A DNA stretch of 64,000 nt. Origin: an uncultured Candidatus Saccharibacteria bacterium. GTDB lineage: Bacteria; Patescibacteriota; Minisyncoccia; Phycocordibacterales; UBA9973. The position numbers and the translations under genes were made by a program. Where the stretch lies: positions 103,150 through 167,149 of the forward strand of contig CAZWJU010000002.1 of the NCBI GenBank assembly GCA_964634365.1. The letters run 5' to 3'. A model generated the notes under the pieces. The model saw only the letters and a list, made by a program, of their open reading frames with translations. It was not told the DNA's origin and searched no databases. Shown here one piece after another: positions 1,902-27,855 of this stretch. Numbering within the stretch: position 1 is the first letter of the stretch; the number at the start of each line of letters is the position of its first letter.

Positions 1902-3791
1902 TTATACACTGAATACATCTCTAATGTGTCCATCCTTCACTTCAAATGCTAGAGAAACAAAAACTTTTGTATATGTAGAATCTGCATTTTTCTTCTCTAT
2001 TGTCACATAATAATTTCCATTTGAAATCAAACAGTAGTAGTGGCCTCTCGCATCAGAAACCTTGTGAGTAATTTCTTGATTATTGGATACAGAATACACG
2101 CGCAGAATTGCATATGATAGAGGTAGTCCTGTTGCTTTGTCTACAATACCTCCAAGTTTATGATTCTTGTACCCTACCTCTCTCAAAATAAACAAAAGTA
2201 TATATAGAGCAAATATAATTATGTTGTATAAAACAGGCGAAACCAAAAAGGCAATAAATGCTATGAAGAAACCGGCAGCAAAAAGAGTGTCTGATATTTG
2301 TCTAAAAATAGCATCGCGTCTTGAATAAAACTTCATCAATTTCTGTTGTTTTTTAGCAAATTCATTCCAATCGAAGTTGATCGGATCCATAGGGATATTT
2401 TTTGTTATAGGAGAATTCTCTGTAACCTCCAAGTCTTCACCAAAATACAAGTCTTGATATAGTTCGTCTTTTTTCTGTCCTGCTAATTTTTCTGAAGGAA
2501 ACTTATAGTTAGTTTTATTGGCAACTATTTTATAAGTCCCACTAGGTACCAAAAATCCAAAACGCCCATCTAGATCGGTTATAGATGTAGAAACTTCAGT
2601 TCCATATTTGTCGTACAAAACAACATAAGCAGGATCAAGTGGCTGCTTTGTTATAGAGTCATATACAGTTCCCCATGGTGGACGACGTTTCGATAGACCA
2701 AAAGCTGCTAGTAGTAGTGACCACAATCTAAAAGGTATGAAAACAAGTTCAGAGAGCGAAAGTGGATTCATAAATAGCAGTGAGGCAATAGATATAACCG
2801 CACTGGTTGTCAAAGCAAAACCAGTAAAAATCTTTGTAGCAAGACCTCCACTTTCGCTGTTTATATAATCCTCTATTCCTCCTGGTATACCATCTGTAAA
2901 ATCAATTCCTCCGTCTGTAATACAATCAATTCCTACGCAAATCTCTGGATCTGTAGGTGGGGGTACACAATCAGCACCGACACAAGTCTCTGGAGGATTG
3001 CACTCTTCACCTACACAACCAATCGGCGCATAATCACAAGGTGATGGACTGCCATAGTTTGTTGCAAACAAATCTTCACAGATATTTTCTTCTTCCGGTG
3101 GATTACAATCTTCACCTACACAGCCAACTGGTGCATAATCACAAGGCGAAGGCCCACCAAAATTTGTTGCTGCAACATCAGAACAGATAGAGATTGTGTA
3201 AGTACAAGGCAGTGCTCCGCCATAGTTTGCTGCATTCGTATCAGAACATAAACTAGGAGGATTACCGCCTCCACCTCCACCCGTAGTATCTCCATCTCTA
3301 GCATCTTTAGGTCTCCAATCAGTTTTCACACAAGCATCAGCGACTCCACAATCAAACTGAATCCAACCATAGTTTTCGCTCCATGCAAAACCTACAAATT
3401 CCCCGTCCATATCTATATAAACTTCTTGTGTAGAACTATTCGAGAAAGGGCCGAAGTTTATCCAGCCAGCAGCCTCACCCCATGCATATCCAGAAAGCTG
3501 ACCTCGAGAAGAATCTGTGTCTGGATCATTCAATACACCTCCTGAGTTAGGATCTAAGTGAATCCATCCTAGACTAGGACCCCAGATATCTCCAGTTACA
3601 GCGTCATCAGTTATAAGAACATCTTCTGCGCCAGCATTGCCAGGAACAAGCCAGTAAATCAATTGGCCGTGTGTGTATATTTTTGAAGTATAACTATCTA
3701 CATCGATAGTACCCTCTTCTTCAGAAGCAACTGCAGAAAAAACATTTAGAAAAAATATTGATATTATAAATAAAAATAAAATTTTCTTCAT
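1902..3791 (-). CDS. Large secreted, membrane-anchored protein. N-terminal repeats AW(G/S)E..GWI.F, tandem Cys-rich repeats about 35 aa long, TM segments, and a C-terminal CarboxypepD_reg-like beta domain.
   Basis: Signal peptide MKKILFLFIISIFFLNVFSAVASE. Repeats GYAWGEAAGWINF / GFAWSENYGWIQFD. Tandem repeats ATNFGGPSPCDYAPVGCVGEDCNPPEEENICEDLF x2-3. Hydrophobic helices. C-terminal GTYKIVANKTNYKF-like beta-sandwich motif. Confidence 0.6.
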   Translation of the reverse strand: MKKILFLFIISIFFLNVFSAVASEEEGTIDVDSYTSKIYTHGQLIYWLVPGNAGAEDVLITDDAVTGDIWGPSLGWIHLDPNSGGVLNDPDTDSSRGQLSGYAWGEAAGWINFGPFSNSSTQEVYIDMDGEFVGFAWSENYGWIQFDCGVADACVKTDWRPKDARDGDTTGGGGGGNPPSLCSDTNAANYGGALPCTYTISICSDVAATNFGGPSPCDYAPVGCVGEDCNPPEEENICEDLFATNYGSPSPCDYAPIGCVGEECNPPETCVGADCVPPPTDPEICVGIDCITDGGIDFTDGIPGGIEDYINSESGGLATKIFTGFALTTSAVISIASLLFMNPLSLSELVFIPFRLWSLLLAAFGLSKRRPPWGTVYDSITKQPLDPAYVVLYDKYGTEVSTSITDLDGRFGFLVPSGTYKIVANKTNYKFPSEKLAGQKKDELYQDLYFGEDLEVTENSPITKNIPMDPINFDWNEFAKKQQKLMKFYSRRDAIFRQISDTLFAAGFFIAFIAFLVSPVLYNIIIFALYILLFILREVGYKNHKLGGIVDKATGLPLSYAILRVYSVSNNQEITHKVSDARGHYYCLISNGNYYVTIEKKNADSTYTKVFVSLAFEVKDGHIRDVFSV

Positions 3792-14050: not shown

Positions 14051-15430
14051 TTATTGTATTCTATAGCTCCAAAGAATCCCGTCTTTTTTATTTGTAAAGA
14101 AAATATATTTTTCGCTTCCGTCCAAGAAAAGATTTGTCATATCAATAGTTGTATTCAAAATACTAGCTGGATCAATCAAAGTATAGTAGACACTAGTATC
14201 CAAATTCATACTCCAAAGAGCATCCTCAAAAGATACTCGCCCTTGATACCAGACATCAGGATATGTTCCAGAAGAAAAACTTTTTGGCACAGCACAGAAA
14301 ACAGTAATACTATCTTTTGACCACACACACTTTTCTGGCAAAGTAGACATCCCTAGATCTGTGGTTAATTTTGTATTCAAATCATAAGAATAAAGTCTTA
14401 CTCCATTTGCAACAGACGCACTATATAAAACTTTTTTACCATCAGGGCTCATTTTTGTAGTTAAACCTACGATTCCACCAAGCACCTTATCAAAGCTTTT
14501 TTTGTTTACATCTACAGAATACATATATCCTGCGGTAATTCCTGAAGGCTTTGTAGTAAGAGTTATGGTTGATTGGTTTGGCCAAAATGATAACCATTCG
14601 GAAAGTGAAGATTCAAAAACTTGAGATTTTTTACCACCAAGAAAATCTTCTGTTATACCCACAACTCCACCAACTACAGGCTCGATAGTAAAAAATCTAG
14701 TTTTATCAGGTGAAACTGAAACATCTGTTATTCCTTCGACTAAAAAATTACCTTTCAAATCTTTAATCTCAGATGGATTCTGACTATCACCACCATCTGC
14801 AAAAACGCTAGGAGATGAAAGTGTAGCGAGATAGGTTTGTATCTTATTTGTACCATCTTCTAAATATCTAAATACAACAGATTCTCCGTTTGTGTTCCAG
14901 TAAGTATCATATATTCTAGGTATAGTTGTGTTAGAAACTCTCGTTTCAGTCAATGAGTCAGTATAAGTTTGATATATATGTGCAGTTGATTGCTCCATAT
15001 ATCTTATGGCTGTTACATCTTCTGTTATTGTCTCTTCTGTAGGCGCAGGCTCTGTTGTAAGAGGATCGCCACCAGCATCCCCTTCAATTGGAGCAGGAGG
15101 TATCGGGATTGTGCGTGTTCTTTGTGTTAAAAATGCTGTTGCACCAGAAACAGGAAAAGTTGAAATCTGTCTAAATCTCGGCACGACGACCTCACCATTT
15201 TCATCCACTTCGACTACTCCAGTATCTACAACATCATCATTTGTATCGTTACCTATTGTATTTCCACCCCGATCAGTTAACGATGGAAAAGGAAACAGAT
15301 CTGACAAATTAAAACCATTGCCATCTCCGCTAGGAGTCGTATTTTTATTCTTAAAAAATACAGCTAAAAAAACAATCAAAATGATTACAAATATAGAAAC
15401 TGTAATTAAAATTAATTTATTTTTAGACAT
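14051..15430 (-). CDS. Secreted/anchored protein, possibly a beta-propeller with TolB/PD40-like repeats. Hypothetical.
   Basis: N-terminal TM. MSPDGKKVLYSAS-like propeller repeat. Last gene of the T4SS-like cluster, in the same orientation. Confidence 0.5.
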   Translation of the reverse strand: MSKNKLILITVSIFVIILIVFLAVFFKNKNTTPSGDGNGFNLSDLFPFPSLTDRGGNTIGNDTNDDVVDTGVVEVDENGEVVVPRFRQISTFPVSGATAFLTQRTRTIPIPPAPIEGDAGGDPLTTEPAPTEETITEDVTAIRYMEQSTAHIYQTYTDSLTETRVSNTTIPRIYDTYWNTNGESVVFRYLEDGTNKIQTYLATLSSPSVFADGGDSQNPSEIKDLKGNFLVEGITDVSVSPDKTRFFTIEPVVGGVVGITEDFLGGKKSQVFESSLSEWLSFWPNQSTITLTTKPSGITAGYMYSVDVNKKSFDKVLGGIVGLTTKMSPDGKKVLYSASVANGVRLYSYDLNTKLTTDLGMSTLPEKCVWSKDSITVFCAVPKSFSSGTYPDVWYQGRVSFEDALWSMNLDTSVYYTLIDPASILNTTIDMTNLFLDGSEKYIFFTNKKDGILWSYRIQ

Positions 15431-15442
15431 TATTTTAATAAA

Positions 15443-16684
15443 CTATTTTCCATCAACTGACCAGTGCCAAGGTTCTTTACTAAAATTTATCAAAGTAGGA
15501 TTGTTGCTTTTGTTTGAAAGCCATACAAAGCATGTATTTGATTGACTTGTTATTCCACCTCCGTCACATCTAAAATCAATCGCGAGACCACTTTCATGAT
15601 TTGAATAACCAGGATAGGCTGTTGGTGGCTTACAAATTGCATTTTCATTGTAAATATTTGCTTCTCCACAATTCTCAGCCCGCAGAGCAACTTGCTCTTC
15701 ATGTGTTCTAAATCCACCACCAGATAGTTTTACTCCTTCGCTCCAAGCTTTGTTAATCATAGTCTGCATCGCGGCTGATATTCTTTGACATACATACATA
15801 TTACCACCACTTGTCTCAATATTAACAATTCCCTCAGGACATTGTGCTACGGCACCGGCTGGTATAGGACCAGTATCGTTGAGCTCAAATGGATTATATG
15901 TTTCTTCTTCGTATGCAAGATCAACACCTTTTATCCCAAGATGTAGATTTATAAGGTTCGGATTTATTGTGTTCAATATCAAGTAACTAGCCAACGCAAG
16001 CAGTAAGCCACCGAGTGCATAAGTAATCCGTTCCCTACCCTCACTTTTACCAGAAAGTGCATCTGTAGACATATACTGAATACCTCCTAGCACCATCATG
16101 ATCACAGCCAGTGCTCCAGCAAATCCAATAGTAAATTTTATAATTATATTCAAATAATCTCCTAAGTCGGTGTTTGCTGGATTAACTTCAGATATTCCAG
16201 GTATAGGTGCGAGCAAGCAATATGAATCGCTACCACTTGCACAATTAGTACTTGAAGTTGTTGTTCCAGAACCACTAAGATCGAGAGCATCTTTCCCATC
16301 AACAACGTCAACAGCTACGAGAGGTGTAGTGAAAGAATCTACAGTAGTGAGTTTTATTGTATTATCAGCCCCATCTACAAACTGATAATAGTATGTAGTG
16401 TTTGGTGTGAGCCCTGTTATAGAACCGGAAAAAGATCCATCAGCAGATGGTGTAATAGTAGGACCTGAGTTTGTTAGTGATGTAGAAGTTGTACCCCATT
16501 TAGGAACCATAGAGAAACCAGGCTCTGCTTCTACAACATCCCCTCCAAAAGAAAGAGAAGTTGGGTTTAGGTCTATTTCTCCAGAATCAATAAAAACATC
16601 GACAGCATGTGCACTCTTTGAATAAAGCAATCCTAGAAATAAAATCGCGGATAAGAATATTTTATATTTTTTAAAAATGATCAT
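15443..16684 (-). CDS. Secreted FN3 domain + VirB2/TrbC-like two-helix hydrophobic hairpin + C-terminal peptidase M15 (VanY/LAS-type) cell-wall hydrolase domain
   Basis: Signal peptide. FN3-like GLTPNTTYYYQF. Hairpin IGFAGALAVIMMVLGGIQYMS...TYALGGLLLALASYLIL. M15 region GGFRTHEEQ...YSNHESGLAIDF (SxHxxGxAxD). Confidence 0.6.
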   Translation of the reverse strand: MIIFKKYKIFLSAILFLGLLYSKSAHAVDVFIDSGEIDLNPTSLSFGGDVVEAEPGFSMVPKWGTTSTSLTNSGPTITPSADGSFSGSITGLTPNTTYYYQFVDGADNTIKLTTVDSFTTPLVAVDVVDGKDALDLSGSGTTTSSTNCASGSDSYCLLAPIPGISEVNPANTDLGDYLNIIIKFTIGFAGALAVIMMVLGGIQYMSTDALSGKSEGRERITYALGGLLLALASYLILNTINPNLINLHLGIKGVDLAYEEETYNPFELNDTGPIPAGAVAQCPEGIVNIETSGGNMYVCQRISAAMQTMINKAWSEGVKLSGGGFRTHEEQVALRAENCGEANIYNENAICKPPTAYPGYSNHESGLAIDFRCDGGGITSQSNTCFVWLSNKSNNPTLINFSKEPWHWSVDGK

Positions 16685-16688
16685 AATT

Positions 16689-17723
16689 TTAAAGATTAAC
16701 GTTTAGAGTTTTTTCTGCTGATTGAAAAAGTCTAGGCTTACTTTCAATTGATAAATTGATAAAAGCATTTCCACTAGCTCCAGCAGGTTTTCTGACAACT
16801 AAAGTATTTTTAGGATCTTGATTGTCGATTCTTGTGCCGTTGATTTTCCATTCATAATCAAGATCAGTAGAAAGTGCGTTTTTTGGAGAAAAGAAGTAAG
16901 GTTCCGCGATAATAGTTGTTTCATCTTTTCCTAAAGAAAAATACTCGCCAAGATTTTTCCTATAATTCACACCAGACAAAGGGTTGTATTCATAAAAACC
17001 AATAAATGGAGAATATGTTCTGATCGTAGATATCTTTTGAGCAGACAGACCTCCGCTGATAGCTGTTGCTTTCAGTGAGATAGTCTCTGTTGTGTTCAAG
17101 TAGCTAGATTTAAAAATAAAAGAATCTTTTGAATACCCAGAGAAGTTTGGCAGTGCGTTGAAGTTTCTTTCCCATGAAAAAGTTAAATCATTTTTAGATA
17201 GCTTAGTACTCCCCAATTTCATATCTGGTATGCCGACGACTTTAATTACAGCCTCAGAAGACGGCAACGCTTTGCCTTTATAAAAAGGTGGAGTGTATGA
17301 ATCTACCGCTTCCCATATCAAATCAATAGTCGAAGGTTCAATTGATATTGTCTTAACTAAAGTTGACCCTCTAAAAACAATTACTGCTTCTACTGCAGTT
17401 TTAGAACCACTAGCTCCAGAATTTAGAGTATATGAAGTAGCACCATTTCTTGATAAAACAGTTTTACCTGAAACTTTCCATGTAATTAGTGAGCTATTTA
17501 AATCTATAGCGTAGCTAGTGAGTTTGATTGTAACTTGTTCGTTTGGACCAGGTATTTCTGGTGTAATTTCTGCTATAACATCACTTCCGACAAGTGCTTC
17601 TGAGTAAAGTGGTGCAGAAAACATAATCACAGAGAAAATTGTGACTGAAAAAATAGAATAGAGTAGGCAATATCGCTTTTTATTCATTAAAACTATTATA
17701 AAATAAGCACCTATTGTATACAA
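16689..17723 (-). CDS. Secreted hypothetical protein. By position a possible VirB8-like or accessory T4SS component.
   Basis: N-terminal TM/signal and a beta-rich body. Sits between the VirB4 and hydrolase genes. Confidence 0.45.
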   Translation of the reverse strand: MYTIGAYFIIVLMNKKRYCLLYSIFSVTIFSVIMFSAPLYSEALVGSDVIAEITPEIPGPNEQVTIKLTSYAIDLNSSLITWKVSGKTVLSRNGATSYTLNSGASGSKTAVEAVIVFRGSTLVKTISIEPSTIDLIWEAVDSYTPPFYKGKALPSSEAVIKVVGIPDMKLGSTKLSKNDLTFSWERNFNALPNFSGYSKDSFIFKSSYLNTTETISLKATAISGGLSAQKISTIRTYSPFIGFYEYNPLSGVNYRKNLGEYFSLGKDETTIIAEPYFFSPKNALSTDLDYEWKINGTRIDNQDPKNTLVVRKPAGASGNAFINLSIESKPRLFQSAEKTLNVNL

Positions 17724-17726
17724 GGA

Positions 17727-19553
17727 CTAACTAGAAGCTTCCTCCAAATCCTTTTTAGCCTTTTGTATAGCCAGAACCTGGGATGGATCAGAAGTTATAA
17801 TCTGGTCTTCGGTATATGAAGCAATAACCTTTATAGCTACGTGCTTCAATCCAGCAAAGAATATACCCTCTCCCACTCCACTCTCTAGGAGCAAATACTT
17901 TTCTTCATCGGTTAAGTTAAAAGTCTTCTGTAATACATCTATTGAACTAGGAGATTGTTTCAAGAGTAGCTGGATGGACGAGTTTGTAACAATCGGTAGT
18001 CCATATGGACTCTTCAAGAAGTCTCCTACGTCTTGAGTAATAGTCATCAATCCTAAATAGTATTTTCTTCCACGTTTTGCGATTGAGTACAGGAAAGATG
18101 CTGTGTCTTCACTTTTCATCATCCACCAAGCCTCGTCCACCACAAGCAATCTCTTGCGAAGATTCTTACGCACAGCGTTCCAGATATAGTGAGTAACTAT
18201 ATACATTGCTACAGGCTTAAGTTCGTCTTCCATATCGCGCACTGAAAACACCACAAACTTTTTGTTGATATCTACGTTTGAAGGTTGGTTCAAAAATCCT
18301 GCCCAGCTACCTCGAGTATATTTTTGCAACTTCTGAACTATAGACTCTGTGTTCTCCATACCAGAGAGAACCATTTCAAAGTCAGACAAAAGTGGTGGCT
18401 CAATATTTGAAAAGTCAGAATTTGCAGTGATATCTTTGATAGCATAAGTTTCAGTTATTGCTCTGTCGATAATCGCATCTTCTTCTGGAGTAAGACCTCC
18501 GAGCATTATACGGAAAAGACCTACTAGATTGATTGTGTTTGATCTTAGGACATCACTAGCGGTTTCATCTTCGCGAGGTATAGGTAAGTCAAAAGGGTTT
18601 ATGTGGTGGTCAGATGATAGAGATATATTGAAATATCTTCCCCCTACTGCTTCTGCCAAATATTCGTATTCACGCTCTGGGTCGATTACAATCACCTCTG
18701 TATCAAACATGAGTGTACGGATAAGCTCTAGTTTTGTTGCATAAGATTTACCAGAACCAGACTTAGCAAAAGTAATAGAGTTGTAGTTTTCTAGAGAAAA
18801 GCGATCAAATATAACTAGACTAGAATTGTGACGGTTCACGCCGTACAAAATCCCCTTGTCACTAGTTAGGTCAAAAGAAACAAACGGAAAAATACTAGAA
18901 AGAGGTTCGGAGTTTAATTTCTGATGAACACCGAGTAGGTCTGTACCTATTGGAATCACACTCTTGAAGCCTTCTTCTTGTTGAAATAGTGCTGGCTTTA
19001 GATACACGAGCTTAGCATCCAGGATTGATTTGATTTCATTTTCTAATTTGAAAAGTTCGTCTTCGTTGTCAGCGTACATGGTTATATACAAACCAACATC
19101 GAACATCTTTTCTTGGGCTTGTTGTAGACTATCGCGCAAAGACTCAAGATCTCTGTAAGCAGTATCAAGCATCGGATCACGCACAAGACCGCGACTCTCT
19201 CGCATATTTATCTGACTCTGCACTTCAGCAACCTTTTTCTGAAATTGACGCAATATAGTAGCTGTATCAATCGGATGCACGAAAAATGAAACGTCGAATA
19301 TTTTGTCTAGATTGATTATAGGAGCAAACCAGTTGTCTGTTAGATATCTTGGATAAGATATAACAAAGAAAGTTCTCGCTATTTTATCTCCCAGGTGCAA
19401 AGCTTTTGGTTCAATTTGAAGTGCTGAAGGTGCAATAACATCCTGAAGTTCGAGTGTTGCAGCTTCATATATCTCGCCTGGCAAAACAGGCAAAACTTGA
19501 TGTTCGTTCGCCTTCTTGCTTGATTTACCTAAAATTTTATCTAAAAGTCCCAT
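17727..19553 (-). CDS. virB4: VirB4/TraC/PrgJ-type conjugative ATPase, C-terminal ATPase portion
   Basis: Walker A FAKSGSGKSYATK, Walker B LLVVDEAWWMM, and TITQDVGDF. 608 aa. Confidence 0.75.
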   Translation of the reverse strand: MGLLDKILGKSSKKANEHQVLPVLPGEIYEAATLELQDVIAPSALQIEPKALHLGDKIARTFFVISYPRYLTDNWFAPIINLDKIFDVSFFVHPIDTATILRQFQKKVAEVQSQINMRESRGLVRDPMLDTAYRDLESLRDSLQQAQEKMFDVGLYITMYADNEDELFKLENEIKSILDAKLVYLKPALFQQEEGFKSVIPIGTDLLGVHQKLNSEPLSSIFPFVSFDLTSDKGILYGVNRHNSSLVIFDRFSLENYNSITFAKSGSGKSYATKLELIRTLMFDTEVIVIDPEREYEYLAEAVGGRYFNISLSSDHHINPFDLPIPREDETASDVLRSNTINLVGLFRIMLGGLTPEEDAIIDRAITETYAIKDITANSDFSNIEPPLLSDFEMVLSGMENTESIVQKLQKYTRGSWAGFLNQPSNVDINKKFVVFSVRDMEDELKPVAMYIVTHYIWNAVRKNLRKRLLVVDEAWWMMKSEDTASFLYSIAKRGRKYYLGLMTITQDVGDFLKSPYGLPIVTNSSIQLLLKQSPSSIDVLQKTFNLTDEEKYLLLESGVGEGIFFAGLKHVAIKVIASYTEDQIITSDPSQVLAIQKAKKDLEEASS

Positions 19554-19555
19554 AA

Positions 19556-20200
19556 TTATATTTTTATATTTTGTTCAGTCTCACCTGGGTTAAATACCTT
19601 ATAAAAAAGCTCTATAACCTCTTCGGTTCCAAGTTTTGTACTACGAACACCGCAACGATTTAAACCCTGCTGCACAACAGATATACGTTGTTCAAGCTGA
19701 GTTCTCTTTTCTTCGAATAGAGAGAGGGCGTCGTTTTTCTGGCTAACTTTGTCGCCGGCGCCAGTAAGGTCAGAAAAAGCTTTTGTTATACTACCCTGTT
19801 TTGATAGGGGCGCTGCAGAATAAGGTACTACTATAAAAAAGTTTTTGGTCATTATGTTAACTTGCTCTGTGAAAGATCTTATGAATTCTATGTATTCTTT
19901 TGTCTGCACCTTGAGCAGAGGCTCAACCTGATCCTTCATGCGATTTTCGAGAGTAAGCAGATACGGCTTTATATCCAGTCTTCGTGACTGGACGATGATC
20001 TGTGTTGAAAATTCTAGGGAGTTTAGAAATGTTTGAAATTGCATTATTATAGCCTGCTGTTCGTCACTTGATTTTAAAGATAGGTTTACAGAAGAAGCCA
20101 TGATCACAGCACGCAAACCTCCGTCTTTAAGCACAACAACACCATCCCGAACTTCTTTGATCGGTACGAATGATTGTGTTGAGCGTGCGTTGATTGCCAT
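19556..20200 (-). CDS. virB4: VirB4 N-terminal domain encoded as a separate ORF. Split or frameshifted VirB4.
   Basis: FVPIKEVRDGVVVLKDGGLRAVIMASSVNL..SDEQQAIIMQFQTFLNSLEFSTQIIVQSRRLD matches the N-terminus of Gram-positive VirB4 proteins. The stop TAA is 2 nt before the ATG of the ATPase ORF, in another frame. Confidence 0.65.
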   Translation of the reverse strand: MAINARSTQSFVPIKEVRDGVVVLKDGGLRAVIMASSVNLSLKSSDEQQAIIMQFQTFLNSLEFSTQIIVQSRRLDIKPYLLTLENRMKDQVEPLLKVQTKEYIEFIRSFTEQVNIMTKNFFIVVPYSAAPLSKQGSITKAFSDLTGAGDKVSQKNDALSLFEEKRTQLEQRISVVQQGLNRCGVRSTKLGTEEVIELFYKVFNPGETEQNIKI

Positions 20201-20222: not shown

Positions 20223-20627
20223 TTACTTTTTAGAGTTCACATCGAGCACATCTAGACTCCAAGATATGTCTTTGAGCTTACTTTCTGATAATCTGGGTAC
20301 AATCGGTGCAGGGAGTACATCTTCACTCTTTTTAATTTCCTTTTTATTTGGATCTTTTTTCCAAATATACAATTTACCTTGAACGAGAAATCTGATATAG
20401 GATTCTAGTATTGCAATAAAAGGCTTGTTGTTGACTTTATAAAAAGTCAGAGCAAGAGAGAGACCTGCTATAGGAACAATAAGTAAAACCGCAAAGAAAA
20501 ATGGCAGTAATTTGTAAATAATAAAACAAATACCTGCTCCACCAGCTAGGTAGACAAATTGCTTGAAAGTAAAAGGTCCAAATATTTTGTCTTCAATATC
20601 AATAAATTGAGGGACACTAAATCGCAT
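20223..20627 (-). CDS. PrgI/TcpE-like small two-TM protein (VirB3 analogue)
   Basis: MRFSVPQFIDIEDKIFGPFTFKQFVYLAGGAGICFIIY fits the PrgI-family N-terminus. Two TM helices. Immediately upstream of VirB4. Confidence 0.6.
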   Translation of the reverse strand: MRFSVPQFIDIEDKIFGPFTFKQFVYLAGGAGICFIIYKLLPFFFAVLLIVPIAGLSLALTFYKVNNKPFIAILESYIRFLVQGKLYIWKKDPNKKEIKKSEDVLPAPIVPRLSESKLKDISWSLDVLDVNSKK

Positions 20628-20742: not shown

Positions 20743-21642
20743 TTAGATTGGCTCTCTATATGGATCGCCTTGAGTTTTCTTTTCTCCCAAACCAGGGACT
20801 GTGTAATTGCTTACCTCTTTTGGAATTTTAAAAGTTGCCTGTAACTTACTTCCTACTATACCTGCACTAGGAACCTCTGGTGTGGTAGAAACCCCTTTGG
20901 ATTGTGCAAGTTTTTGGATTGGTGAGATTGAGGTGTTGCCTATAACTGGTGTTTCTAATTTTTCTACAACCTTAGGTGCTGGTGGGACAATATTTGTCGG
21001 TACTTTTATTTTTTGTAGACCAGTGTCTTCTATTTTTCCTATAATTAGAGGTTTTACAACTTCTGGATTCTTTATAGAAGTCTCGCTTTTAGGAGGATTC
21101 TCAAGTGTTCTGAGTAGCTTGTCTCTATCTAGCCTCTTTGCATCTACATCTTCTAATGCTTCTCGGACTTGCTCTCCAGGGTCTTCTTCTATTTCTATAT
21201 CAGTACTACGAAGTATTGCGCTATCATTTTGCTCTTGTTTATTTGGAGTACTTGGAAAGTTCAACTTTATTGGGGTATTTTCTTTCACTGCTTCCTCGCT
21301 TTCCAAAACCTCTTCTGACTCAGGTTCGTACGAAAAGGCGATCATGGCTTGTCTATATGGAACAAAAATCTTTTTGTTTATCTCATCGACAATTTTTATA
21401 AGCACATCGTCTGGTAGGCCTGTAATAGATTTAACTGAGTCATAGAATTCACTAGCCTTCTCTAGGCCAATAAGTACAAATGTAACTTGTCCAGATATTT
21501 GAGACATTTTATCAAGTGACACTTGATGTGTTCCTGCAATACCTTGCATGACTTTATCAACAGAGACTATACTCATAGCTTTACGCCCTGCTTCACTCAT
21601 TGATTCAAATGCTTTATTTATTTGTTCAACTGTATATGCCAT
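20743..21642 (-). CDS. Hypothetical soluble protein within the T4SS-like cluster
   Basis: 299 aa with no TM. Acidic middle and Pro/Lys-rich tail. Confidence 0.5.
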   Translation of the reverse strand: MAYTVEQINKAFESMSEAGRKAMSIVSVDKVMQGIAGTHQVSLDKMSQISGQVTFVLIGLEKASEFYDSVKSITGLPDDVLIKIVDEINKKIFVPYRQAMIAFSYEPESEEVLESEEAVKENTPIKLNFPSTPNKQEQNDSAILRSTDIEIEEDPGEQVREALEDVDAKRLDRDKLLRTLENPPKSETSIKNPEVVKPLIIGKIEDTGLQKIKVPTNIVPPAPKVVEKLETPVIGNTSISPIQKLAQSKGVSTTPEVPSAGIVGSKLQATFKIPKEVSNYTVPGLGEKKTQGDPYREPI

Positions 21643-21647
21643 ATATT

Positions 21648-24600
21648 TTAACTAGATAATTTTTCTTGAGCTTCAGACTTATTGTTTTGTTGCTGAGCTT
21701 TATCGTTAAACAATGTCTTATAAGAAGCAATTTCTCCTTTCGTTTTATCATATTGCGACTTAACTTGTGCATATTGTTGAGCTGTTATAGTGCCGTCTGC
21801 AACATCTTTTTCTGCTTTTTTCAATTGTGCTTCGTATATAGCCAAGCTAGACTGACCTTCATTCATAGCGAATTCAACATGATCAAACGATACATCTGCA
21901 GCAGTAATTTGATTTCCTGCATTCGCTGGATCCAAATTCCAAGTATCTGCAATATCTTGTAAATGTTGGTCAATTTTCTTGAGCTCATAATTAGCCCGTG
22001 TAAGCTGATCTTCTGCTTTCTTTTTCTCTTTTCCACTAATAGGTTTATTTTCTTCACCAGCTTTTTTACGTGTATCGGTAGTAAATTGTTTTTCAGATCT
22101 AGACATATCAGTTCTAGCTTCAATATTTTGTGCCTTTCTCCATTCCACTTCATTGAATACTTGACCTTGTGCGAGAGCTTGTTCACGTGCTTCGTTTCGT
22201 TTTTGTGTGTATCCATTGCCATATTCAACTTCATTTGCCTGATCATGCAATCTCTCTGAATTAACCTCTTTTGCAGTTTTTTCTTTTGCTCTACCGTTGA
22301 TAGTTTGTACTTGTCCAGAAGCATCTGTGTATGTAGTAGAAGTTTGACCTCTTTCAAATCTCTTTCTGAAATCAACTTCATCAAGATTAGGATTTTGTTT
22401 TCTTTCTTCTTCAAGAGCCTTTTCAAGATCAGCCTTCCATGCACCTGCCTTTTTATCTTGCTGGTTAGCCTCATATCCTTTGAGCAAGTATGTATCTGCT
22501 TTATCTGATTTTTCTTTTGTTTTACGTTCGTTTGCACCTTTTGCTCCACCTTCAGAACTTAGATCAAAGCGACCTGTTCCTCCAACCATATTGCCAAGAT
22601 TTTGTGCAAATTTTGCACTACCCTTTGTATCCATATCCCAACCTGTATTTTTACCAAATGCAGCACCAGCCTTTGTCTTTCGAAAATCAAATGAACTTGC
22701 TGCACCGTAGTTTGCAAGAGCAAGTTTTCTCTGTGCACTTTTATCTCCTGCCGCAGCTGCTGCCTGAAGTTCTGGATTAGCTGCTTGTCTAGCTGCATAA
22801 GCACCAACAGTTCCTCGCATAGCAAGTGCTGCTCCGCCAGTTGCTGCTCCCACCGCAAAACCTCCGACTTTATTCATAACTGACATAGATTGTTGTCCAA
22901 TTTCCCCAGACAAATCTATCGCTAGTTTTTCTGCCTTCATAAGAAGTGTGTAGACAATTGCAAAAGGAAGTAACACATACAAAAGATTTGCTCCGGCAGA
23001 TGCAGTGTCAGATATAGCAAGAGTTTTTAAATCCAAAAACAAAACTATCAAATACAAAAAGAATAAAAATACCGGTGCCAGAAATGCAGTTTTAATAAGC
23101 TCGCTAGACCAGTTAGACCAACCAACATTTTTCCAACTCTTCATACCCGGGACTATCATAGATATGAAAGCCATAGGAGAAAAGATCATGGCAACCATCA
23201 GAGATATAACTCTACCAACAAACAAAATACCAATCTTCAGAAACATCATTATCAAGAGGACGTTCATTACGACAGCTACTAAAGTAACAATGATATACAT
23301 ACCGATATCATTGTTTGCGTCTATTTCACTCTTTGAAAAAAGTGTTTGTGGGTTAAACTGACTAACCAAAGCTCCTGAAATAGTTTTCTCGTCGCCAACA
23401 CCATCCCCTCCACCGACCGATATAGTACTGTACATCAAGTTGGCTAAGATATTTGAAGTATCGACAACTATTTTAGTAAAAAATAAACTGAAGTTTATAA
23501 GTAGAGCCACAACAACAAGTGTGCCGATCATCTTCTTTGCATCAACAGAAGGTAGTCTGAGAATCGTTCCTATGGCTATGTATAAGAGTATGAAAATAAA
23601 TACTATGTTTGATATATCGCGCACAAGTGACCAACCTTGTGATATAAATTCAGATTCACTATATGTAGAGCTCTGTATTGAAAAGTGCATAAACCAGTCC
23701 AAAAACATAGCTGCGAGCCCAGCCAAGAACGCTGTTGGTTTATAGAAAACATAATAAAGTAAGTTTGCAAAACATCCAGGAAAATTTATACCAGTTGGCA
23801 CACCAAGATCATTAAACCTTATACATTCTGGTCCATTATCTGAATTTTCTGTTGCTGTTGTGCCCGTAGAAACAAGCTCAACAGTATCTCCAGTTGTTGC
23901 AGATTCATCTACACCACTAGCATCAGTTGTAAATTTAATAAATTTACTATATCCAGTTTCAGTACCTCCTGCTGAATGAAAAGATATGCGAGCATAGTAG
24001 GTCTGACCTGGCTCTAATCCATTGTTTATTATCTTAATCTTTGTATCAGCCTGGGTTGTTGCTTCAAAATTTATAAATGGGTCTAATTTTGTCTTTAAAA
24101 ATCTATCTGACAAATCTGGGGCAAGCGGTGGCGTGTCAGTACCCTCAAGCGCACCTCCTCCTTCATTTGTCCCTGTACCAATTTCTAAAAACATACCTCG
24201 ATCAGAACCGTAAACCGCACCACTAAAACTCTCAAGTGGTATTCCATCATCTTTTGTATTATATATAGCAGCCCAAGAACCAATATCTTCTATGTCATCA
24301 CCTATTATTGTATTACCGTCTCTATCTGCAGCTGCATTTGTACCACCAGCCATAGTAAAGCCGAAATTTACATCAACCCAGTTTGAACCGACATCACTTA
24401 AAGAGAGTGTTACATTGTTTGTTATGAATAAATCTCTAGATCCCAAAAATTCAGTACCAAGCAAACCAGCAGTCTGCCCTTCGTAGAGACCAGTAGGCCA
24501 TTCATCATCTAATCCTGTAGAATTAGCATTTGCTGGAAATAGGTCAGTTAAATCATTTGGATCAAAATCTGCCAATACGGTCCCTTTTGGCAAAAACAAA

Positions 24601-24659
24601 AAGGAAAAAGAGCTCATCACTATAGCGAGGAGTAGTGTCGATGCGCAAATATTCTTCAT
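21648..24659 (-). CDS. VirB6/TrbL-like polytopic membrane protein with an N-terminal secreted FN3-like domain and a long C-terminal charged/coiled-coil tail. Start at the internal MKNICAS.
   Basis: Signal peptide. FN3-like GLEPGQTYYARISF. About 8 hydrophobic helices. C-terminal 400 aa Lys/Glu/Gln/Ala-rich. Confidence 0.55.
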   Translation of the reverse strand: MKNICASTLLLAIVMSSFSFLFLPKGTVLADFDPNDLTDLFPANANSTGLDDEWPTGLYEGQTAGLLGTEFLGSRDLFITNNVTLSLSDVGSNWVDVNFGFTMAGGTNAAADRDGNTIIGDDIEDIGSWAAIYNTKDDGIPLESFSGAVYGSDRGMFLEIGTGTNEGGGALEGTDTPPLAPDLSDRFLKTKLDPFINFEATTQADTKIKIINNGLEPGQTYYARISFHSAGGTETGYSKFIKFTTDASGVDESATTGDTVELVSTGTTATENSDNGPECIRFNDLGVPTGINFPGCFANLLYYVFYKPTAFLAGLAAMFLDWFMHFSIQSSTYSESEFISQGWSLVRDISNIVFIFILLYIAIGTILRLPSVDAKKMIGTLVVVALLINFSLFFTKIVVDTSNILANLMYSTISVGGGDGVGDEKTISGALVSQFNPQTLFSKSEIDANNDIGMYIIVTLVAVVMNVLLIMMFLKIGILFVGRVISLMVAMIFSPMAFISMIVPGMKSWKNVGWSNWSSELIKTAFLAPVFLFFLYLIVLFLDLKTLAISDTASAGANLLYVLLPFAIVYTLLMKAEKLAIDLSGEIGQQSMSVMNKVGGFAVGAATGGAALAMRGTVGAYAARQAANPELQAAAAAGDKSAQRKLALANYGAASSFDFRKTKAGAAFGKNTGWDMDTKGSAKFAQNLGNMVGGTGRFDLSSEGGAKGANERKTKEKSDKADTYLLKGYEANQQDKKAGAWKADLEKALEEERKQNPNLDEVDFRKRFERGQTSTTYTDASGQVQTINGRAKEKTAKEVNSERLHDQANEVEYGNGYTQKRNEAREQALAQGQVFNEVEWRKAQNIEARTDMSRSEKQFTTDTRKKAGEENKPISGKEKKKAEDQLTRANYELKKIDQHLQDIADTWNLDPANAGNQITAADVSFDHVEFAMNEGQSSLAIYEAQLKKAEKDVADGTITAQQYAQVKSQYDKTKGEIASYKTLFNDKAQQQNNKSEAQEKLSS

Positions 24660-24750
24660 TCTTTTTGATATTTTTTGCACAATAATATTGTACGTATATT
24701 GTACCACGCAAATACACAGTAAATACAACAAAAAAAGTGAATTTCTATAG

Positions 24751-24778
24751 AAAATCCCCCACTCGGGGGATTTTCTAA
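24751..24778. terminator. Terminator hairpin of the AAAATCCCC...GGGGATTTT family
   Basis: gaaaatccccc-actc-gggggattttc. Confidence 0.55.
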
Positions 24779-24786
24779 ACTATTTA

Positions 24787-26901
24787 CTAAAAAGAATCAC
24801 CTGTATAATCACTTATTGTACCTCTATACCAACTACTACAATCGAATTCAAATTTTTGATCTGTGTTATAACCTCTTGTCTGTGTATATAGAGTACCCCA
24901 TGATGTTTCCCAACCACAAAATAAAGTTTGTCTTATATCGTCAGTTGCAATATGCCAAGCATCTGAATACATAGGCGCTGCTGCAAAGTCTAATACTTCT
25001 GATTTACACTGGGAAAATAGAGATTCTGGATTAACTGGATCAAATATATCGTAATCTTCGTTTTGATATTGCTTGAGCTCCGCATCTGCGTCTGCGATCG
25101 TGTCCGGGCGACCAATTTGTGATTTTATCGAAGTATATTGTGATGCCAATTTATTTTTAAGCTCTATGTTTTCTGGAGAATCTTCTACTGATGGATCTAT
25201 AGGTTTTGGGTGAGCTATGATACTAGCTTTTATGCTTTGAAGTAGGCCTAGAGTTCTAATCTTAGAAGATATCTTTGCATCAAGCGCTCCAATATCATCG
25301 TTGTATTTTGAAATTCTATTTACTTGATCATATATAAGTGGAGCAGATGGAATATTTTTGATTGGAAAATTAACATCTTCAAAAGGAAGCCCCCCTGTGC
25401 AACTTGATATATCTGACTGCGCTATCGCAGGAGCATCGCGTTCAGTTCCTGCTGTAAGCGCCAATTTTATATTTGATATGAGCTGAGACATGAAACCATC
25501 GAAACATTTTATTTGATCTTGAGCTTCGTCTCCATTTTCAGAATTGTTGTCTGATTTATTTTGGATCTTTTTTGATTCAAGTAAATATTGTTCACGCATT
25601 CTGGTAGTAAATTTATAATCTGGACCTGGTAGGCACTGATCTAGCTCCATAGTTTTTTGAGGAAAATCTCTAAGAATTTCTTTTGTATCCATCAATAAAT
25701 CAAACTCTGCTTGAGTATCTTCTATAGAAGTTTCAAGTAATTCACTTGGCACGCCAGTTAGCACTCCGCCTATATATACAGGAGAGGCTTCTAGGTCTAC
25801 AGTATCAACTGTATTCCACACAAAAGTATCGCCACTTGATTGGAAAGCTGAGTTATTACCTGGACCACCAGCAGTAGGATCTTCTGGATCGGCAGTAGCT
25901 ATGTTGCCTATAAGTTCTGTAATACCATTTGTAATAAGACCTGCAGCCAAATTTGAAACAGCATCGAGAATCGGACTTCCAGAACTAGCATCAGTAATCG
26001 CCTTTTGTAAAGGAGCTTCGACTGTTTGTTGTAGTTGTGCTGCGATCAGTTTACCAGGGGTAACAGTTTCGTATCTTGCACAATCGTCACTAGCATCAAA
26101 CTCTATATCACTACCGAGACTTATACTTAGACTATTCAAATACTCTTCCATGTCCTCTCCTATTGGTGCAAGACCAGATGCATCTACACCGTCTTTGTAT
26201 TGAACACATTTTTTCATAGAAAGAAAACCTCCACTTTGAGTAAGTTCTGTTTTAGTAGTACCCTGGACAGAATCTATTCTGCTTTCCAATTCCTCCGCAG
26301 ACCTCAAATACGCACCAACTGGATTGTTGGCATCATTTTGTGTGTAATCCATCCAAGCATCCCAGCCACCAACATTAAAATCATCTTCAGTAAAATCTTG
26401 CCAATTAGGTCCAATAGTTTCATCGAGAGAAAAATTCAACTTACTTTTAAAAGTATCACTATTTCCAGAAACCTGATCGGTGATCAAGTTCATTGATATG
26501 TTTCTAGCATAAGGAAAAGCACTCTCATCTGCACTAATTTCATTTACAAAAGCTTCAACTTGTTCATCTGCTACACTTTTGAAAAAACTTTTCTCGTCTC
26601 TTACAAAAAATGGGTCGCCCTTGAATCCAGTTGAACCCCAGTTTATAACCTGCTGAGTCATATTGAGTGCTACTTGTGAACCAATCTTCTTTAGCATTTT
26701 ACCCAAGACTGACTCATTGAACTCTTTGACTGTTGTTGCAGCAGTTTGAGCTGATTTTATAGCATTACCAATATTTACGGGTAGATTTGCAAGGTCTATT
26801 GTAGGCAATCCTGTAGCTTTGGCCTGATTGACATTAAAAACAAAAATAAAAGCCAGAACAAGAATTATTTTGCCGATTGATTTTAGATTCTTAGATTTCA
26901 T
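24787..26901 (-). CDS. Large secreted hypothetical protein in the T4SS-like cluster
   Basis: Signal peptide MKSKNLKSIGKIILVLAFIFVFNVNQAKA. 704 aa. No recognisable catalytic motif. Confidence 0.55.
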   Translation of the reverse strand: MKSKNLKSIGKIILVLAFIFVFNVNQAKATGLPTIDLANLPVNIGNAIKSAQTAATTVKEFNESVLGKMLKKIGSQVALNMTQQVINWGSTGFKGDPFFVRDEKSFFKSVADEQVEAFVNEISADESAFPYARNISMNLITDQVSGNSDTFKSKLNFSLDETIGPNWQDFTEDDFNVGGWDAWMDYTQNDANNPVGAYLRSAEELESRIDSVQGTTKTELTQSGGFLSMKKCVQYKDGVDASGLAPIGEDMEEYLNSLSISLGSDIEFDASDDCARYETVTPGKLIAAQLQQTVEAPLQKAITDASSGSPILDAVSNLAAGLITNGITELIGNIATADPEDPTAGGPGNNSAFQSSGDTFVWNTVDTVDLEASPVYIGGVLTGVPSELLETSIEDTQAEFDLLMDTKEILRDFPQKTMELDQCLPGPDYKFTTRMREQYLLESKKIQNKSDNNSENGDEAQDQIKCFDGFMSQLISNIKLALTAGTERDAPAIAQSDISSCTGGLPFEDVNFPIKNIPSAPLIYDQVNRISKYNDDIGALDAKISSKIRTLGLLQSIKASIIAHPKPIDPSVEDSPENIELKNKLASQYTSIKSQIGRPDTIADADAELKQYQNEDYDIFDPVNPESLFSQCKSEVLDFAAAPMYSDAWHIATDDIRQTLFCGWETSWGTLYTQTRGYNTDQKFEFDCSSWYRGTISDYTGDSF

Positions 26902-26925: not shown

Positions 26926-27855
26926 TTATTGTGTCACACTAGCACTTCCGCTAGTAGCGTCTATAATATCCTGATTTAAAGTTTCAAGATTTTTAAGCAT
27001 TTCATTGACTATAGAGTCTGCTTGGTAAGCACTCGCAAGAGCAGGTATGGGGTCTATTGCATACCTCGATATATCTCCAAACATTTCTGAAGTTGAAATT
27101 ATGCTATTTATGAGAGCTAGGTGCACCTCACTTTCTCCGATAACAACTGGAGTTAGAAGTAGGGCATTTGCTAGTGATTTATACTTATCAGAAACTGCTT
27201 TTAAGTCTGCATTTACTGTATTTGTATTTGGTGTAGTTACAACTGTATCAAAAAGTATAAAATCATCTACTTTTATAGGATATTTTGTAAAAGCACTATC
27301 TACTGATTGTATATACGCAATTGCATTTGCACTAGTATCAGCAACGGTTTTTATATCTTTCATATAATACACAGTCCCAGCAGGTTTATTTTGTATAAAA
27401 GCTGATATCTCGGCTATGATACTTGACTCAGACTGGTCTGTTAACTCCCCGTTTTCTTGTAGTGCAGATATGAGCGAAAACAATTGCTGACTAAATGCTT
27501 CAGTTTGAGTAAGTGTCTCTAACTCACCAGAAGAAGATGCATTTGTGTTATCTATTGAGTTCTTTATATTCGAAACCTCCACTCCATCGCTTACACCATC
27601 TCCATTAGTATCACTATTCTCTGGATCCATACCCCACAAACCTTCCTCCCAATCTTTTAGACCGTCAGCGTCGGCATCTTGCTCAACAAGCTCCCCCACC
27701 TCAAGAACAGCAAAAGGTTCTTTTTCTGCTTCCTGTTTTTTAATTATGTCTGGAATTTTAGATACCAAAAACAATATTACTAGAGCCAAGATAACAGCAA
27801 AGATAGCTTTCTGAAAATTCTTGCTAGGAAGATACTTGGAAAACTGAGTATTCAT
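26926..27855 (-). CDS. Membrane-anchored protein with Ca-binding-like DxDxDG repeats, hypothetical
   Basis: N-terminal TM. DADADGLKDWEE and DTNGDGVSDGVE resemble thrombospondin-type-3 / dockerin-like Ca loops. Confidence 0.5.
   Translation of the reverse strand: MNTQFSKYLPSKNFQKAIFAVILALVILFLVSKIPDIIKKQEAEKEPFAVLEVGELVEQDADADGLKDWEEGLWGMDPENSDTNGDGVSDGVEVSNIKNSIDNTNASSSGELETLTQTEAFSQQLFSLISALQENGELTDQSESSIIAEISAFIQNKPAGTVYYMKDIKTVADTSANAIAYIQSVDSAFTKYPIKVDDFILFDTVVTTPNTNTVNADLKAVSDKYKSLANALLLTPVVIGESEVHLALINSIISTSEMFGDISRYAIDPIPALASAYQADSIVNEMLKNLETLNQDIIDATSGSASVTQ

Follow-up and report, generated by a model that had tools for sequence, protein, structure and literature searches.

A VirB2-like pilin unit joined to an M15B/VanY-type zinc peptidase in a type IV secretion cluster of Patescibacteria

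Introduction

Why should a predicted cell-wall peptidase, encoded within a type IV secretion system (T4SS) operon, be joined to a membrane hairpin that resembles a pilin? The question is raised by a gene at positions 15443..16684 (minus strand) of a 64-kb stretch of contig CAZWJU010000002.1, from an uncultured Candidatus Saccharibacteria bacterium; we refer to the whole of this stretch as the window. The gene, taken from the list of open reading frames (ORFs), has an ATG start and, with its stop codon included in the interval, encodes a protein of 413 aa. An initial annotation, made from the DNA sequence alone, had proposed that a secreted FN3 domain, a pilin-like hairpin and an M15 peptidase are combined here in one polypeptide; it announced four parts and listed three. 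The combination itself is confirmed by our analysis. We describe here the domain composition of the fusion protein, its intact active site, and the conserved T4SS slot that it occupies, in which wall-active cassettes are interchangeable.

Results

A zinc peptidase with an intact active site at the end of a modular exported protein

The ORF is a real gene and not a chance reading frame, because an identical protein is already public (P0001, on a 231,850-bp public contig) and orthologues of 415 aa share 81–83% identity with it. One of these orthologues is named ‘D-alanyl-D-alanine carboxypeptidase family protein [Candidatus Pacebacteria bacterium]’. The protein begins with a Sec signal peptide, continues through an FN3-like beta-sandwich and a membrane hairpin of two helices, and ends in an M15B/VanY zinc peptidase. 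Every sequence string quoted in the initial annotation was found again (IGFAGALAVIMMVLGGIQYM at residue 186, TYALGGLLLALASYLIL at 221, GGFRTHEEQ at 323 and SNHESGLAIDF at 361), together with EPWHW at 404. An AlphaFold2 model built from a 74-sequence alignment (mean predicted local distance difference test score, pLDDT, 79.8) contains three confident modules between disordered linkers. This full-length model and the homologue alignment A1 lack Met1, so that their numbers are the true residue minus 1; residue numbers given here are true numbers unless marked as model numbers, and all parts of the protein are located by their minus-strand intervals.

The C-terminal module (residues 280–413; 15446..15847) was assigned to the M15B/VanY-type zinc peptidases by Pfam, Foldseek, phmmer and AlphaFold2. 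It matches Pfam VanY (PF02557) over residues 297–409 with 38.1 bits against a cut-off of 25 (E 1.6e-9), is modelled as an alpha/beta fold at a pLDDT of ~96, and retrieves VanXYc from the PDB with Foldseek (4mur/4oak, E 6e-6, probability 1.00). With phmmer it matches structures of VanY-type carboxypeptidases (E 1e-7) and of LdcB/YodJ (3.5e-6), and its GxRTxxEQ and PGxSxHxxGxAxD motifs are in register with those of the VanY and LdcB structures. The zinc motif SxHxxGxAxD, identified by sequence, alignment and VanY structures, reads S361-N-H363-E-S-G-L-A-I-D370 (15575..15604), and the ExxH motif, which by sequence and alignment supplies the general base and the third Zn ligand, reads E404-P-W-H407 (15464..15475). 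The Zn ligands H363, D370 and H407 and the general base E404 are all intact. Among 74 homologues, S361, H363, D370, E404, H407, R326 and Q331 are each kept in at least 90%, and six cysteines in this C-terminal part are likewise conserved (alignment A1). The LAS/VanY-type assignment of the initial annotation therefore stands on a Pfam score above cut-off, the VanXYc match and a full set of M15 Zn ligands. NCBIfam equivalog cut-offs were not reached (25 bits against 250 for vanXY, 23.6 against 400 for vanY_BG and 21.5 against 275 for LdcB); since these scores fall so far short, we regard the enzyme as neither a resistance VanY nor a bona fide LdcB.

At the other end of the protein, residues 1–27 (16604..16684) form a signal peptide that ends AHA/VD. 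It was recognized by inspection (MIIFKKYKIFLSAILFLGLLYSKSAHA followed by VD, with a basic n-region, a hydrophobic core and an AxA site) and by a hydropathy peak at residues 1–20, and homologues have an equivalent N-terminus. Residues ~40–122 (16319..16567) are predicted to fold as an FN3-like beta-sandwich of seven strands (pLDDT 83–91). Foldseek searches of this domain against the PDB returned FN3 modules and a monobody, the N-domain of purple acid phosphatase and the RsgI4 sensor domain, with E-values of 1e-3 to 2e-2 and TM-scores to the target of ~0.5–0.65; the FN3 sequence profiles PF16656 (E 9e-5) and PF16655 stayed below threshold. Structure prediction and fold comparison thus agree with the proposed FN3-like sandwich. 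The further proposal that this FN3 domain is common to the VirB6-like protein of the same operon is rejected at the sequence level: BLASTP gave E > 1, and a 60-sequence profile of the N-domain did not match the VirB6-like protein at E <= 10.

An S/T/G-rich disordered linker (residues 123–149; 16238..16318; pLDDT < 50 at model residues 125–145) connects the FN3-like domain to the hairpin, and a flexible tether (residues 251–279; 15848..15934; pLDDT < 50 at model residues 248–263) connects the hairpin to the peptidase. From the cleaved signal peptide and the two membrane helices we infer that the FN3-like and peptidase domains are both extracytoplasmic, a placement which, for the peptidase, fits its six conserved cysteines.

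The hairpin is a complete PF18895 pilin unit

Residues 150–250 (15935..16237), from YCLLAPIPG to LNTINPNL, make up by homology a complete mature unit of T4SS_pilin (PF18895). Used alone, this segment retrieves 38 stand-alone proteins of ~56–173 aa, nearly all of which carry PF18895, the best of them 56% identical to the module across ~95% of its length (E 1.6e-23). In the stand-alone pilins the signal peptide is cut just before Y-x-x-L-x-P-L-P-G, two helices follow, and the protein finishes with LNTINPxL and a short P/S/T tail. The fusion unit shares with these pilins the invariant columns GGI-Y and A--GL-L (alignment A2). The layout of the fusion differs in that ~120 residues, the FN3-like domain and linker, stand between the signal peptide and the pilin start. 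Its junctions read ...SGSDS-YCLLAP... on the N side and ...NPNLINLHLGIK... on the C side of the pilin unit. The hairpin is thus a full-length homologue of PF18895 T4SS pilins and not an ordinary signal-anchor.

By hydropathy, a first hydrophobic helix (residues 180–205; 16070..16147) would cross the membrane from outside to inside and a second (residues 220–238; 15971..16027) from inside to outside. AlphaFold2 places a short beta-hairpin before them and extends them into long helices at ~174–206 and 210–240 (model residues 173–205 and 209–239; pLDDT ~90). Between them lies a charged loop, STDALSGKSEGRER (residues 206–219; 16028..16069), with a Lys that is near-invariant in alignments A1 and A2; given the signal peptide and two transmembrane helices, this loop would be cytoplasmic, or would face the lumen if a pilus forms.

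The target scores 16.2 bits as a whole protein and 19.8 bits as the module alone, below the PF18895 gathering threshold of 26.6, which is why its database annotation shows only VanY; many orthologues pass the threshold. We then asked how the unit relates to other pilin families. Of 35 pilin-unit sequences, all match PF18895 and 17 match TrbC (PF04956), the latter at sub-threshold scores (best E 5.4e-4); the target unit itself scores 14.9 bits with PF04956 against a threshold of 27.9 (E 0.031). An hhalign comparison of A2 with a small reference of eight alphaproteobacterial VirB2/TrbC proteins put 63 columns in register with a P/E of 0.048 and a probability of 1.1%, and the pilin-unit profile found no match among PDB sequences. 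On these profile comparisons the link to canonical VirB2/TrbC appears weak but consistent, so that the pilin-like hairpin of the initial annotation holds as a full PF18895 homologue while its resemblance to canonical TrbC/VirB2 is marginal. NF045849, the pilin-like family of Mbov_0395 and MMCAP2_0565, matches 34 of the 35 sequences (best E 1.3e-7; target unit 18.4 bits, E 1.2e-3), all 34 under its 40-bit equivalog cut-off, which suggests that the unit is related to the pilin-like subunit of Mycoplasma integrative and conjugative elements (ICEs). Since that subunit belongs to monoderm MPF-FATA-type systems, these matches fit the MPF-FATA ancestry reported for Patescibacterial T4SS.

One operon slot holds a pilin or a pilin–enzyme fusion

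In the window, the operon is transcribed in the order VirB6-like, p299, PrgI/VirB3-like, TraC/TrsD-like, VirB4, p344, fusion, p459, and two different profiles found no second pilin-like unit in the 64 kb, so that the fusion carries the sole one. The slot was followed in 80 loci from different GTDB species representatives, all of them Patescibacteria, which were found with alignment A2; they belong to Paceibacterota, Nomura-, Zambryski-, Campbell-, Taylor-, Vogel-, Wolfe- and Adlerbacteria and to assemblies labelled Saccharibacteria. At least one conserved cluster gene (VirB4, PrgI, TraC-like, VirB6-like, p344 or p459) lies within 7 kb in 79 of the 80. The order VirB6-like, PrgI, TraC-like, VirB4, p344, pilin or pilin–enzyme fusion, p459 is almost invariant, and five loci reached via individual homologues have it too. 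A p344 homologue stands directly upstream of the pilin gene in nearly all loci, and p459 keeps its position whatever the cassette type. The pilin slot is enzyme-fused in ~60 loci and lacks a substantial C-terminal domain in ~20.

A few loci (L002/L016, L044, L068, L085, L091 and L095) contain two enzyme-fused pilin genes; L002/L016 are from Ca. Paceibacterota (contigs DALYEG010000001.1 and DALYDX010000005.1). In one example of two fusions, a YkuD fusion occupies the standard slot and an SLT fusion follows p459.

The initial annotation had placed the gene at the position of the cell-wall hydrolase, as a PrgK/VirB1 analogue. It does lie in a T4SS operon, two genes downstream of VirB4, but because about one-quarter of species hold a bare pilin there, the position is better called a pilin slot that usually carries an enzyme. 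The architecture had also been judged unlike any in described T4SSs. It is not singular but is found again in hundreds to thousands of genomes of Patescibacteria, and databases already show the domain pair PF18895+PF02557, some members being named ‘VirB2 component (pilin)’ by JGI. Our searches of the literature available without subscription yielded no paper describing a pilin–hydrolase fusion, and so the architecture is visible in domain annotations yet, as far as searched, undescribed.

Wall-active cassettes are exchanged behind a conserved chassis

The pilin unit is present in 106 of the 120 top full-length homologues. Some 75 of these 106 have a VanY-like C-terminus and 31 another one, counts that include as VanY some YkuD variants which the VanY hidden Markov model also labelled; on other fusions Pfam recognizes SLT, NlpC/P60, Peptidase_M15_4 and YkuD. 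The 80 loci contain 89 pilin ORFs, 69 with a C-terminal domain of at least 100 aa, 14 bare and 6 with short tails. The C-terminal domains fall into ~28 BLAST clusters, several of which are SLT-like by hhalign. All cassettes that could be identified have peptidoglycan-active folds (VanY, YkuD, SLT-like, NlpC/P60, M15_4 and Hedgehog/DD-peptidase), and in the 80 loci these families were essentially never detached from the pilin unit. N-terminal extensions range from a signal peptide alone up to ~390 residues.

The exchange is sharply bounded. Two proteins, P0004 and P0005, are 75–100% identical to the target through signal peptide, FN3 and pilin as far as ...LNTINPNLxNLHLGI (P0004 is 81% identical over the aligned N-terminal 65%), and then continue as a Hedgehog-like and a YkuD domain respectively, both unrelated to the VanY domain of the target. 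The breakpoint coincides with the start of the tether, right behind the pilin unit. For the chassis, the nearest relative with a name comes from the genome of a Candidatus Nomurabacteria member. Only 23 of 89 pilin units have the same cassette class as their nearest neighbour, and units with and without an enzyme are interspersed; relatedness of the pilin units and class of cassette are uncoupled.

Two abundant cassette families came to light that are without annotation. The first (cluster 1, alignment A5; members L037:6887-7957, L054:6857-7942, P0004 and P0104) has no Pfam hit and ranks second in frequency among the cassettes on the top pilin-unit matches. Its match to the N-domain of Sonic hedgehog (E 9e-7) includes an aligned zinc motif, and on that ground we assign it to the Hedgehog/DD-peptidase LAS domains; it also matches the N-terminal signalling domain of Indian hedgehog (E ~1e-6). 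The other, cluster 0 (alignment A4; members L021:6842-7816, L022:1137-2798, L026:6878-7948 and P0082), is the most common cassette; it is ~170 aa long, two of its cysteines are conserved, and its H-x2-H-x7-D ... H pattern is invariant. Neither Pfam nor the sequences in the PDB gave a match for it, and hhalign gives no link to VanY or M15_4. Cluster 0 probably represents a family of metallopeptidases that is as yet undescribed and occurs solely in pilin fusions, and its motifs would allow a LAS-like reading.

An exhaustive profile search for the pilin unit returned 50,138 representative clusters at E <= 1e-3 and 19,625 at E <= 1e-10. Of the best 150 clusters, 74 are enzyme-fused, 39 have tails of 30–99 aa, 18 are tandem multi-pilin proteins, 18 are bare, and 1 has an N-terminal extension only. 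Tandem polypeptides with 2–9 complete PF18895 units include P0165, P0171, P0180, P0181 and P0169; P0165 has a signal peptide, four pilin units and a C-terminal SLT-like domain (GRESGG..GLMQIT..AYNCG). The tandem proteins resemble polyproteins of pilins, or else polytopic membrane proteins assembled from pilin hairpins.

The operon and the surrounding window

The minus-strand run to which the fusion belongs is tightly packed, with gaps of 2–115 bp, mostly < 25 bp, and a scan for promoters and terminators inside the operon found nothing above shuffled expectation. The VirB6-like polytopic protein (1027 aa; 21648..24731) was assigned from its position, architecture and many transmembrane helices, and has no Pfam hit. 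It is followed by p299 (20743-21642), between the VirB6-like and PrgI genes, by the PrgI/VirB3-like gene (20223..20627; PF12666, E 1.1e-9), and by the TraC-like/TrsD-like gene (214 aa; 19556..20200; NCBIfam VirB4_plasma 3.8e-13 and TrsD 8.5e-9, with PF26593 in orthologous loci). The TraC-like protein aligns with the N-terminal region of VirB4-family ATPases and with TrsD, and these clusters therefore appear to encode VirB4 in two separate genes. Next come the VirB4-like ATPase (17727..19553; PF19044 TraG P-loop, E 3.8e-26) and, directly upstream of the fusion, p344 (16689..17723), which is membrane-anchored and has no Pfam or NCBIfam hit. Directly downstream of the fusion, in a conserved position, lies p459 (14051..15430), with an N-terminal transmembrane helix and weak similarity to a TolB beta-propeller. 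All these genes are on the minus strand. We regard p344 and p459 as candidates for structural parts of the T4SS that have gone unrecognized, perhaps as analogues of VirB8/9/10.

Just upstream of the VirB6-like gene, on the same strand, are genes for a 704-aa secreted cysteine-rich protein (24787-26901), with no Pfam hit, and for a 309-aa protein (26926-27855) with an N-terminal transmembrane helix, no Pfam hit and a weak match to CglD-like (thrombospondin-type) repeats. A terminator-like hairpin lies at 24756-24770, between the VirB6-like gene and that for the 704-aa protein, and the two upstream genes may or may not belong to the T4SS operon.

The window has ~37% GC, and the genes around the cluster (recJ, comEC, RNase H, ksgA and uvrD) are ordinary chromosomal ones, from which we conclude that the window is part of a Patescibacteria (candidate phyla radiation) chromosome, not a plasmid or phage. 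Between 32001 and 36000 the base composition is strongly skewed (GC skew ~-0.22 to -0.24, AT skew -0.23 to -0.26) across a 1114-aa ORF with no Pfam hit (31412-34756, minus strand), next to a DUF5663 gene (31084-31389). At one end of the window, two large proteins resembling tail or surface fibres are encoded on the minus strand (147-1895 and 1902-3791), one with Peptidase_S74 and one with CarboxypepD_reg domains; Peptidase_S74 is the intramolecular chaperone of endosialidase. In several relatives, including L001 and L004, the T4SS cluster with the pilin–enzyme gene abuts yidC-rnpA-dnaA-dnaN, the replication origin region, a placement reported for Patescibacterial T4SS in a 2025 survey; in this window the cluster is flanked instead by recJ and ksgA/uvrD.

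Discussion

A proposed wall-remodelling enzyme docked at the secretion machine

We believe, with a probability of about 0.55, that the fusion is the VirB2-like (PF18895) subunit of a Paceibacteria-type monoderm T4SS and docks a wall-remodelling enzyme at the machine; VirB2-like and VirB1/PrgK-like roles would then be combined in one polypeptide. After cleavage of the Sec signal peptide the FN3-like domain would be exported, where it probably binds a wall or surface polymer. The pilin helices would insert as a hairpin with both ends outside, leaving the peptidase outside on a tether of ~30 residues, and the pilin unit would attach the whole protein either to the T4SS or to the pool of pilins in the membrane. 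Docking is probable because the constraints on the sequence of the unit are those seen in the stand-alone pilins which, in other species, are encoded at this position of the operon. Held at the machine, the peptidase may edit or cleave the peptide stems of peptidoglycan so that the apparatus can cross its own wall, and might possibly also act on the host wall at the contact site.

By analogy, the docked enzyme is supported by the essential hydrolase genes beside virB4 in Ca. Southlakia. The 2025 survey records peptidase and lysozyme homologues downstream of virB4 as essential in Ca. Southlakia ML1. According to supplementary tables in Wang et al. 2023, the gene immediately after virB4, SEML1_0007, encodes a protein with a C-terminal Hedgehog/DD-peptidase fold, and the next gene, SEML1_0006, encodes two lysozyme-like domains and a cysteine peptidase; both are essential, as are the stand-alone PF18895 pilins SEML1_0014-0019 (Wang et al. 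2023).

Several observations weigh against a docked wall-remodelling subunit. The relation of PF18895 to pilus-forming VirB2 is weak, and docking at the T4SS is deduced from context. Enzymes of the VanY/LdcB type are usually carboxypeptidases that trim stems and do not open the wall, so that a ‘hole-punching’ role is not guaranteed, and the substrate specificity of the peptidase cannot be read off its sequence; some VanY-family domains in phage endolysins are L-Ala-D-Glu endopeptidases. About one-quarter of the loci have a bare pilin and no recognizable hydrolase within 7 kb, from which it follows that the enzyme is accessory and not obligatory for the machine. Rapid exchange of cassettes, finally, suits an effector directed outwards no less well than an assembly factor with a housekeeping role.

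That last point leads to the proposal that the fusion polymerizes, alone or with bare pilins encoded elsewhere, into an extracellular T4SS pilus, whose surface or tip presents an FN3 adhesin and a swappable, wall-degrading warhead to the cell wall of the host bacterium, much as in polymorphic toxin systems. In known pilus structures the N- and C-termini of VirB2-type pilins are both exposed on the outer surface of the filament, so the topology would allow domains to be added. A displayed weapon is favoured by the sharp breakpoint behind the pilin unit, where chassis that are 75–100% identical bear VanY, YkuD or Hedgehog-like cassettes, by the ~28 cassette clusters in 80 loci, by a cassette class that is decoupled from pilin phylogeny (shared by only 23 of 89 nearest neighbours), and by the finding that T4SS and pilins are essential for the epibiotic growth of Ca. 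Southlakia. However, no pilus has been seen for these systems, two folded domains per subunit would crowd a homopolymer, and the window has no bare pilin gene. VanY and YkuD cassettes are not classical lytic enzymes, and no immunity-like gene is evident beside the cassette, the downstream p459 being conserved regardless of cassette type. We therefore consider such a weapon possible but on balance unlikely. A bolder form of it would be an ‘enzymatic pilus’, a filament or stalk of the Paceibacteria-type T4SS built from, or studded with, enzyme- and adhesin-bearing pilins, which diversifies like polymorphic toxins and breaches or remodels the host wall in epibiosis, tandem poly-pilins being processed or concatenated blocks of the same organelle; this is speculative, and we rate it as improbable.

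Alternatively, the fusion may be a carrier from which cleavage before Y-x-L-L-A-P-x-P-G and/or after L-N-T-I-N-P-x-L frees a pilin and a soluble enzyme, and possibly the FN3 domain too, at the T4SS. Stand-alone pilins have their signal peptide cleaved exactly before Y..L.PLPG and end soon after LNTINPxL, disordered linkers flank both boundaries of the unit in the fusion, and tandem polypeptides of 2–9 units, one with a C-terminal SLT-like domain, look like polyproteins. Canonical TrbC/VirB2 pilins, moreover, undergo C-terminal processing or cyclization. Nevertheless, no protease was identified in the conserved operon, and no hydrophobic signal-like segment precedes the internal pilin unit, which makes signal peptidase I unlikely to act there; we are doubtful of this model and give it little weight. 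Its annotation in source databases as a plain ‘D-alanyl-D-alanine carboxypeptidase family protein’, and its best PDB sequence matches, VanY-type carboxypeptidases and LdcB, would be explained if the protein were an ordinary housekeeping D,D- or L,D-carboxypeptidase (LdcB/VanY-like) with a two-helix anchor, beside a T4SS by chance. This is very unlikely in view of an anchor that is a full PF18895 pilin unit, a position between p344 and p459 downstream of VirB4 that holds in 79 of 80 loci, and a chassis on which, within this one slot, enzymes of unrelated fold take the place of VanY. A two-transmembrane hairpin with a peptidoglycan hydrolase also superficially recalls the holin/endolysin logic of a phage lysis module, and the peptidase weakly matches a peptidase-bearing phage tape-measure family (phrog_16823, E 4e-5). 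PF18895 homology, the conserved slot and the failure of the hairpin to match any PHROG family effectively refute that reading; the neighbourhood is chromosomal housekeeping and T4SS with no phage genes, and neither an N-terminal signal peptide nor an exported FN3 domain is a feature of holins.

Implications for Patescibacterial secretion systems

The Patescibacterial T4SS is the sole T4SS shown to be essential for the (epibiotic) growth of its owner, and a considerable fraction of Patescibacteria have just one VirB2-like gene in the cluster, which encodes a covalent fusion to an enzyme active on peptidoglycan. The 2025 survey sought VirB2-like pilins with PF18895 and PF04956 in 1,948 Patescibacterial assemblies, and reported that CONJScan VirB1-type profiles mostly found no VirB1 homologues in genomes with VirB2 homologues; its text and available supplements mention neither VanY, M15 nor a pilin–enzyme fusion. 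Fusion to the pilin, together with cassette exchange, offers a concrete explanation for this ‘missing VirB1’. The findings also raise the question whether the PF18895 unit is a pilus former or a membrane docking module, at a time when a 2025 FEMS review treats a possible pilus of monoderm T4SS as an open question. The soluble enzyme domains with their defined junctions are testable reagents for envelope contact between episymbiont and host, and the Hedgehog/DD-peptidase-like and H-x2-H...D...H cassettes are flagged as two abundant, unannotated families for characterization.

Comparison with known systems

Among pilins, the closest counterparts of the fusion are those of the SEML1_0014-0019 type in Ca. 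Southlakia epibionticum ML1, which have the same core unit, Y..L.PLPG-type start, LNTINPxL end and T4SS neighbourhood; a bare PF18895 pilin occupies the operon slot of the fusion in Paceibacteria-type clusters. The fusion has, in addition to what the stand-alone pilins have, an FN3-like insert and a 134-residue C-terminal zinc peptidase. Canonical TrbC/VirB2 pilins (PF04956) resemble its pilin unit in signal peptide, two hydrophobic helices, short loop and T4SS operon, but carry no appended folded domains. The NF045849 proteins of Mycoplasma ICEs differ from the fusion as two-transmembrane proteins of ~80 aa with no enzyme.

The enzyme shares with M15B VanY, VanXY and LdcB (DacB, YodJ) its fold, the SxHxxGxAxD and ExxH site and the conserved Arg and Gln; the fusion adds six conserved cysteines, a pilin anchor and a T4SS context. 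Polymorphic toxin systems offer an analogy for the exchange, since there too a conserved N-terminal chassis is followed, at a sharp breakpoint, by variable C-terminal enzymes. The fusions differ in that no immunity gene is evident, the identified cassettes are wall-active and not nucleases or pore formers, and the delivery route is putative.

Hydrolases encoded beside secretion machinery come closest in setting. SEML1_0007 has, like the fusion, a C-terminal LAS-superfamily zinc peptidase encoded just downstream of VirB4, of an ECOD fold class (template 6n7g) that it has in common with our cluster 1 cassettes; compared by description, it is a protein of 1113 aa with no reported pilin unit, its pilins being separate genes. 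PrgK (pCF10), TraG (pIP501), CwlT (ICEBs1), TcpG (pCW3) and, in diderm systems, VirB1 are likewise hydrolases of T4SS operons, and this class is, like the fusion, membrane-tethered and modular, with enzyme-domain content that varies between systems (PMC12102498). The target has no SLT, lysozyme, CHAP or NlpC/P60 homology to VirB1, PrgK or CwlT, whereas SLT-like or NlpC/P60 domains do occur in sister fusions of this slot. The hydrolases of Gram-positive T4SSs combine SLT, lysozyme, CHAP, NlpC/P60 or LytM domains with a simple N-terminal anchor; the fusion described here combines an M15B/VanY enzyme with a pilin anchor.

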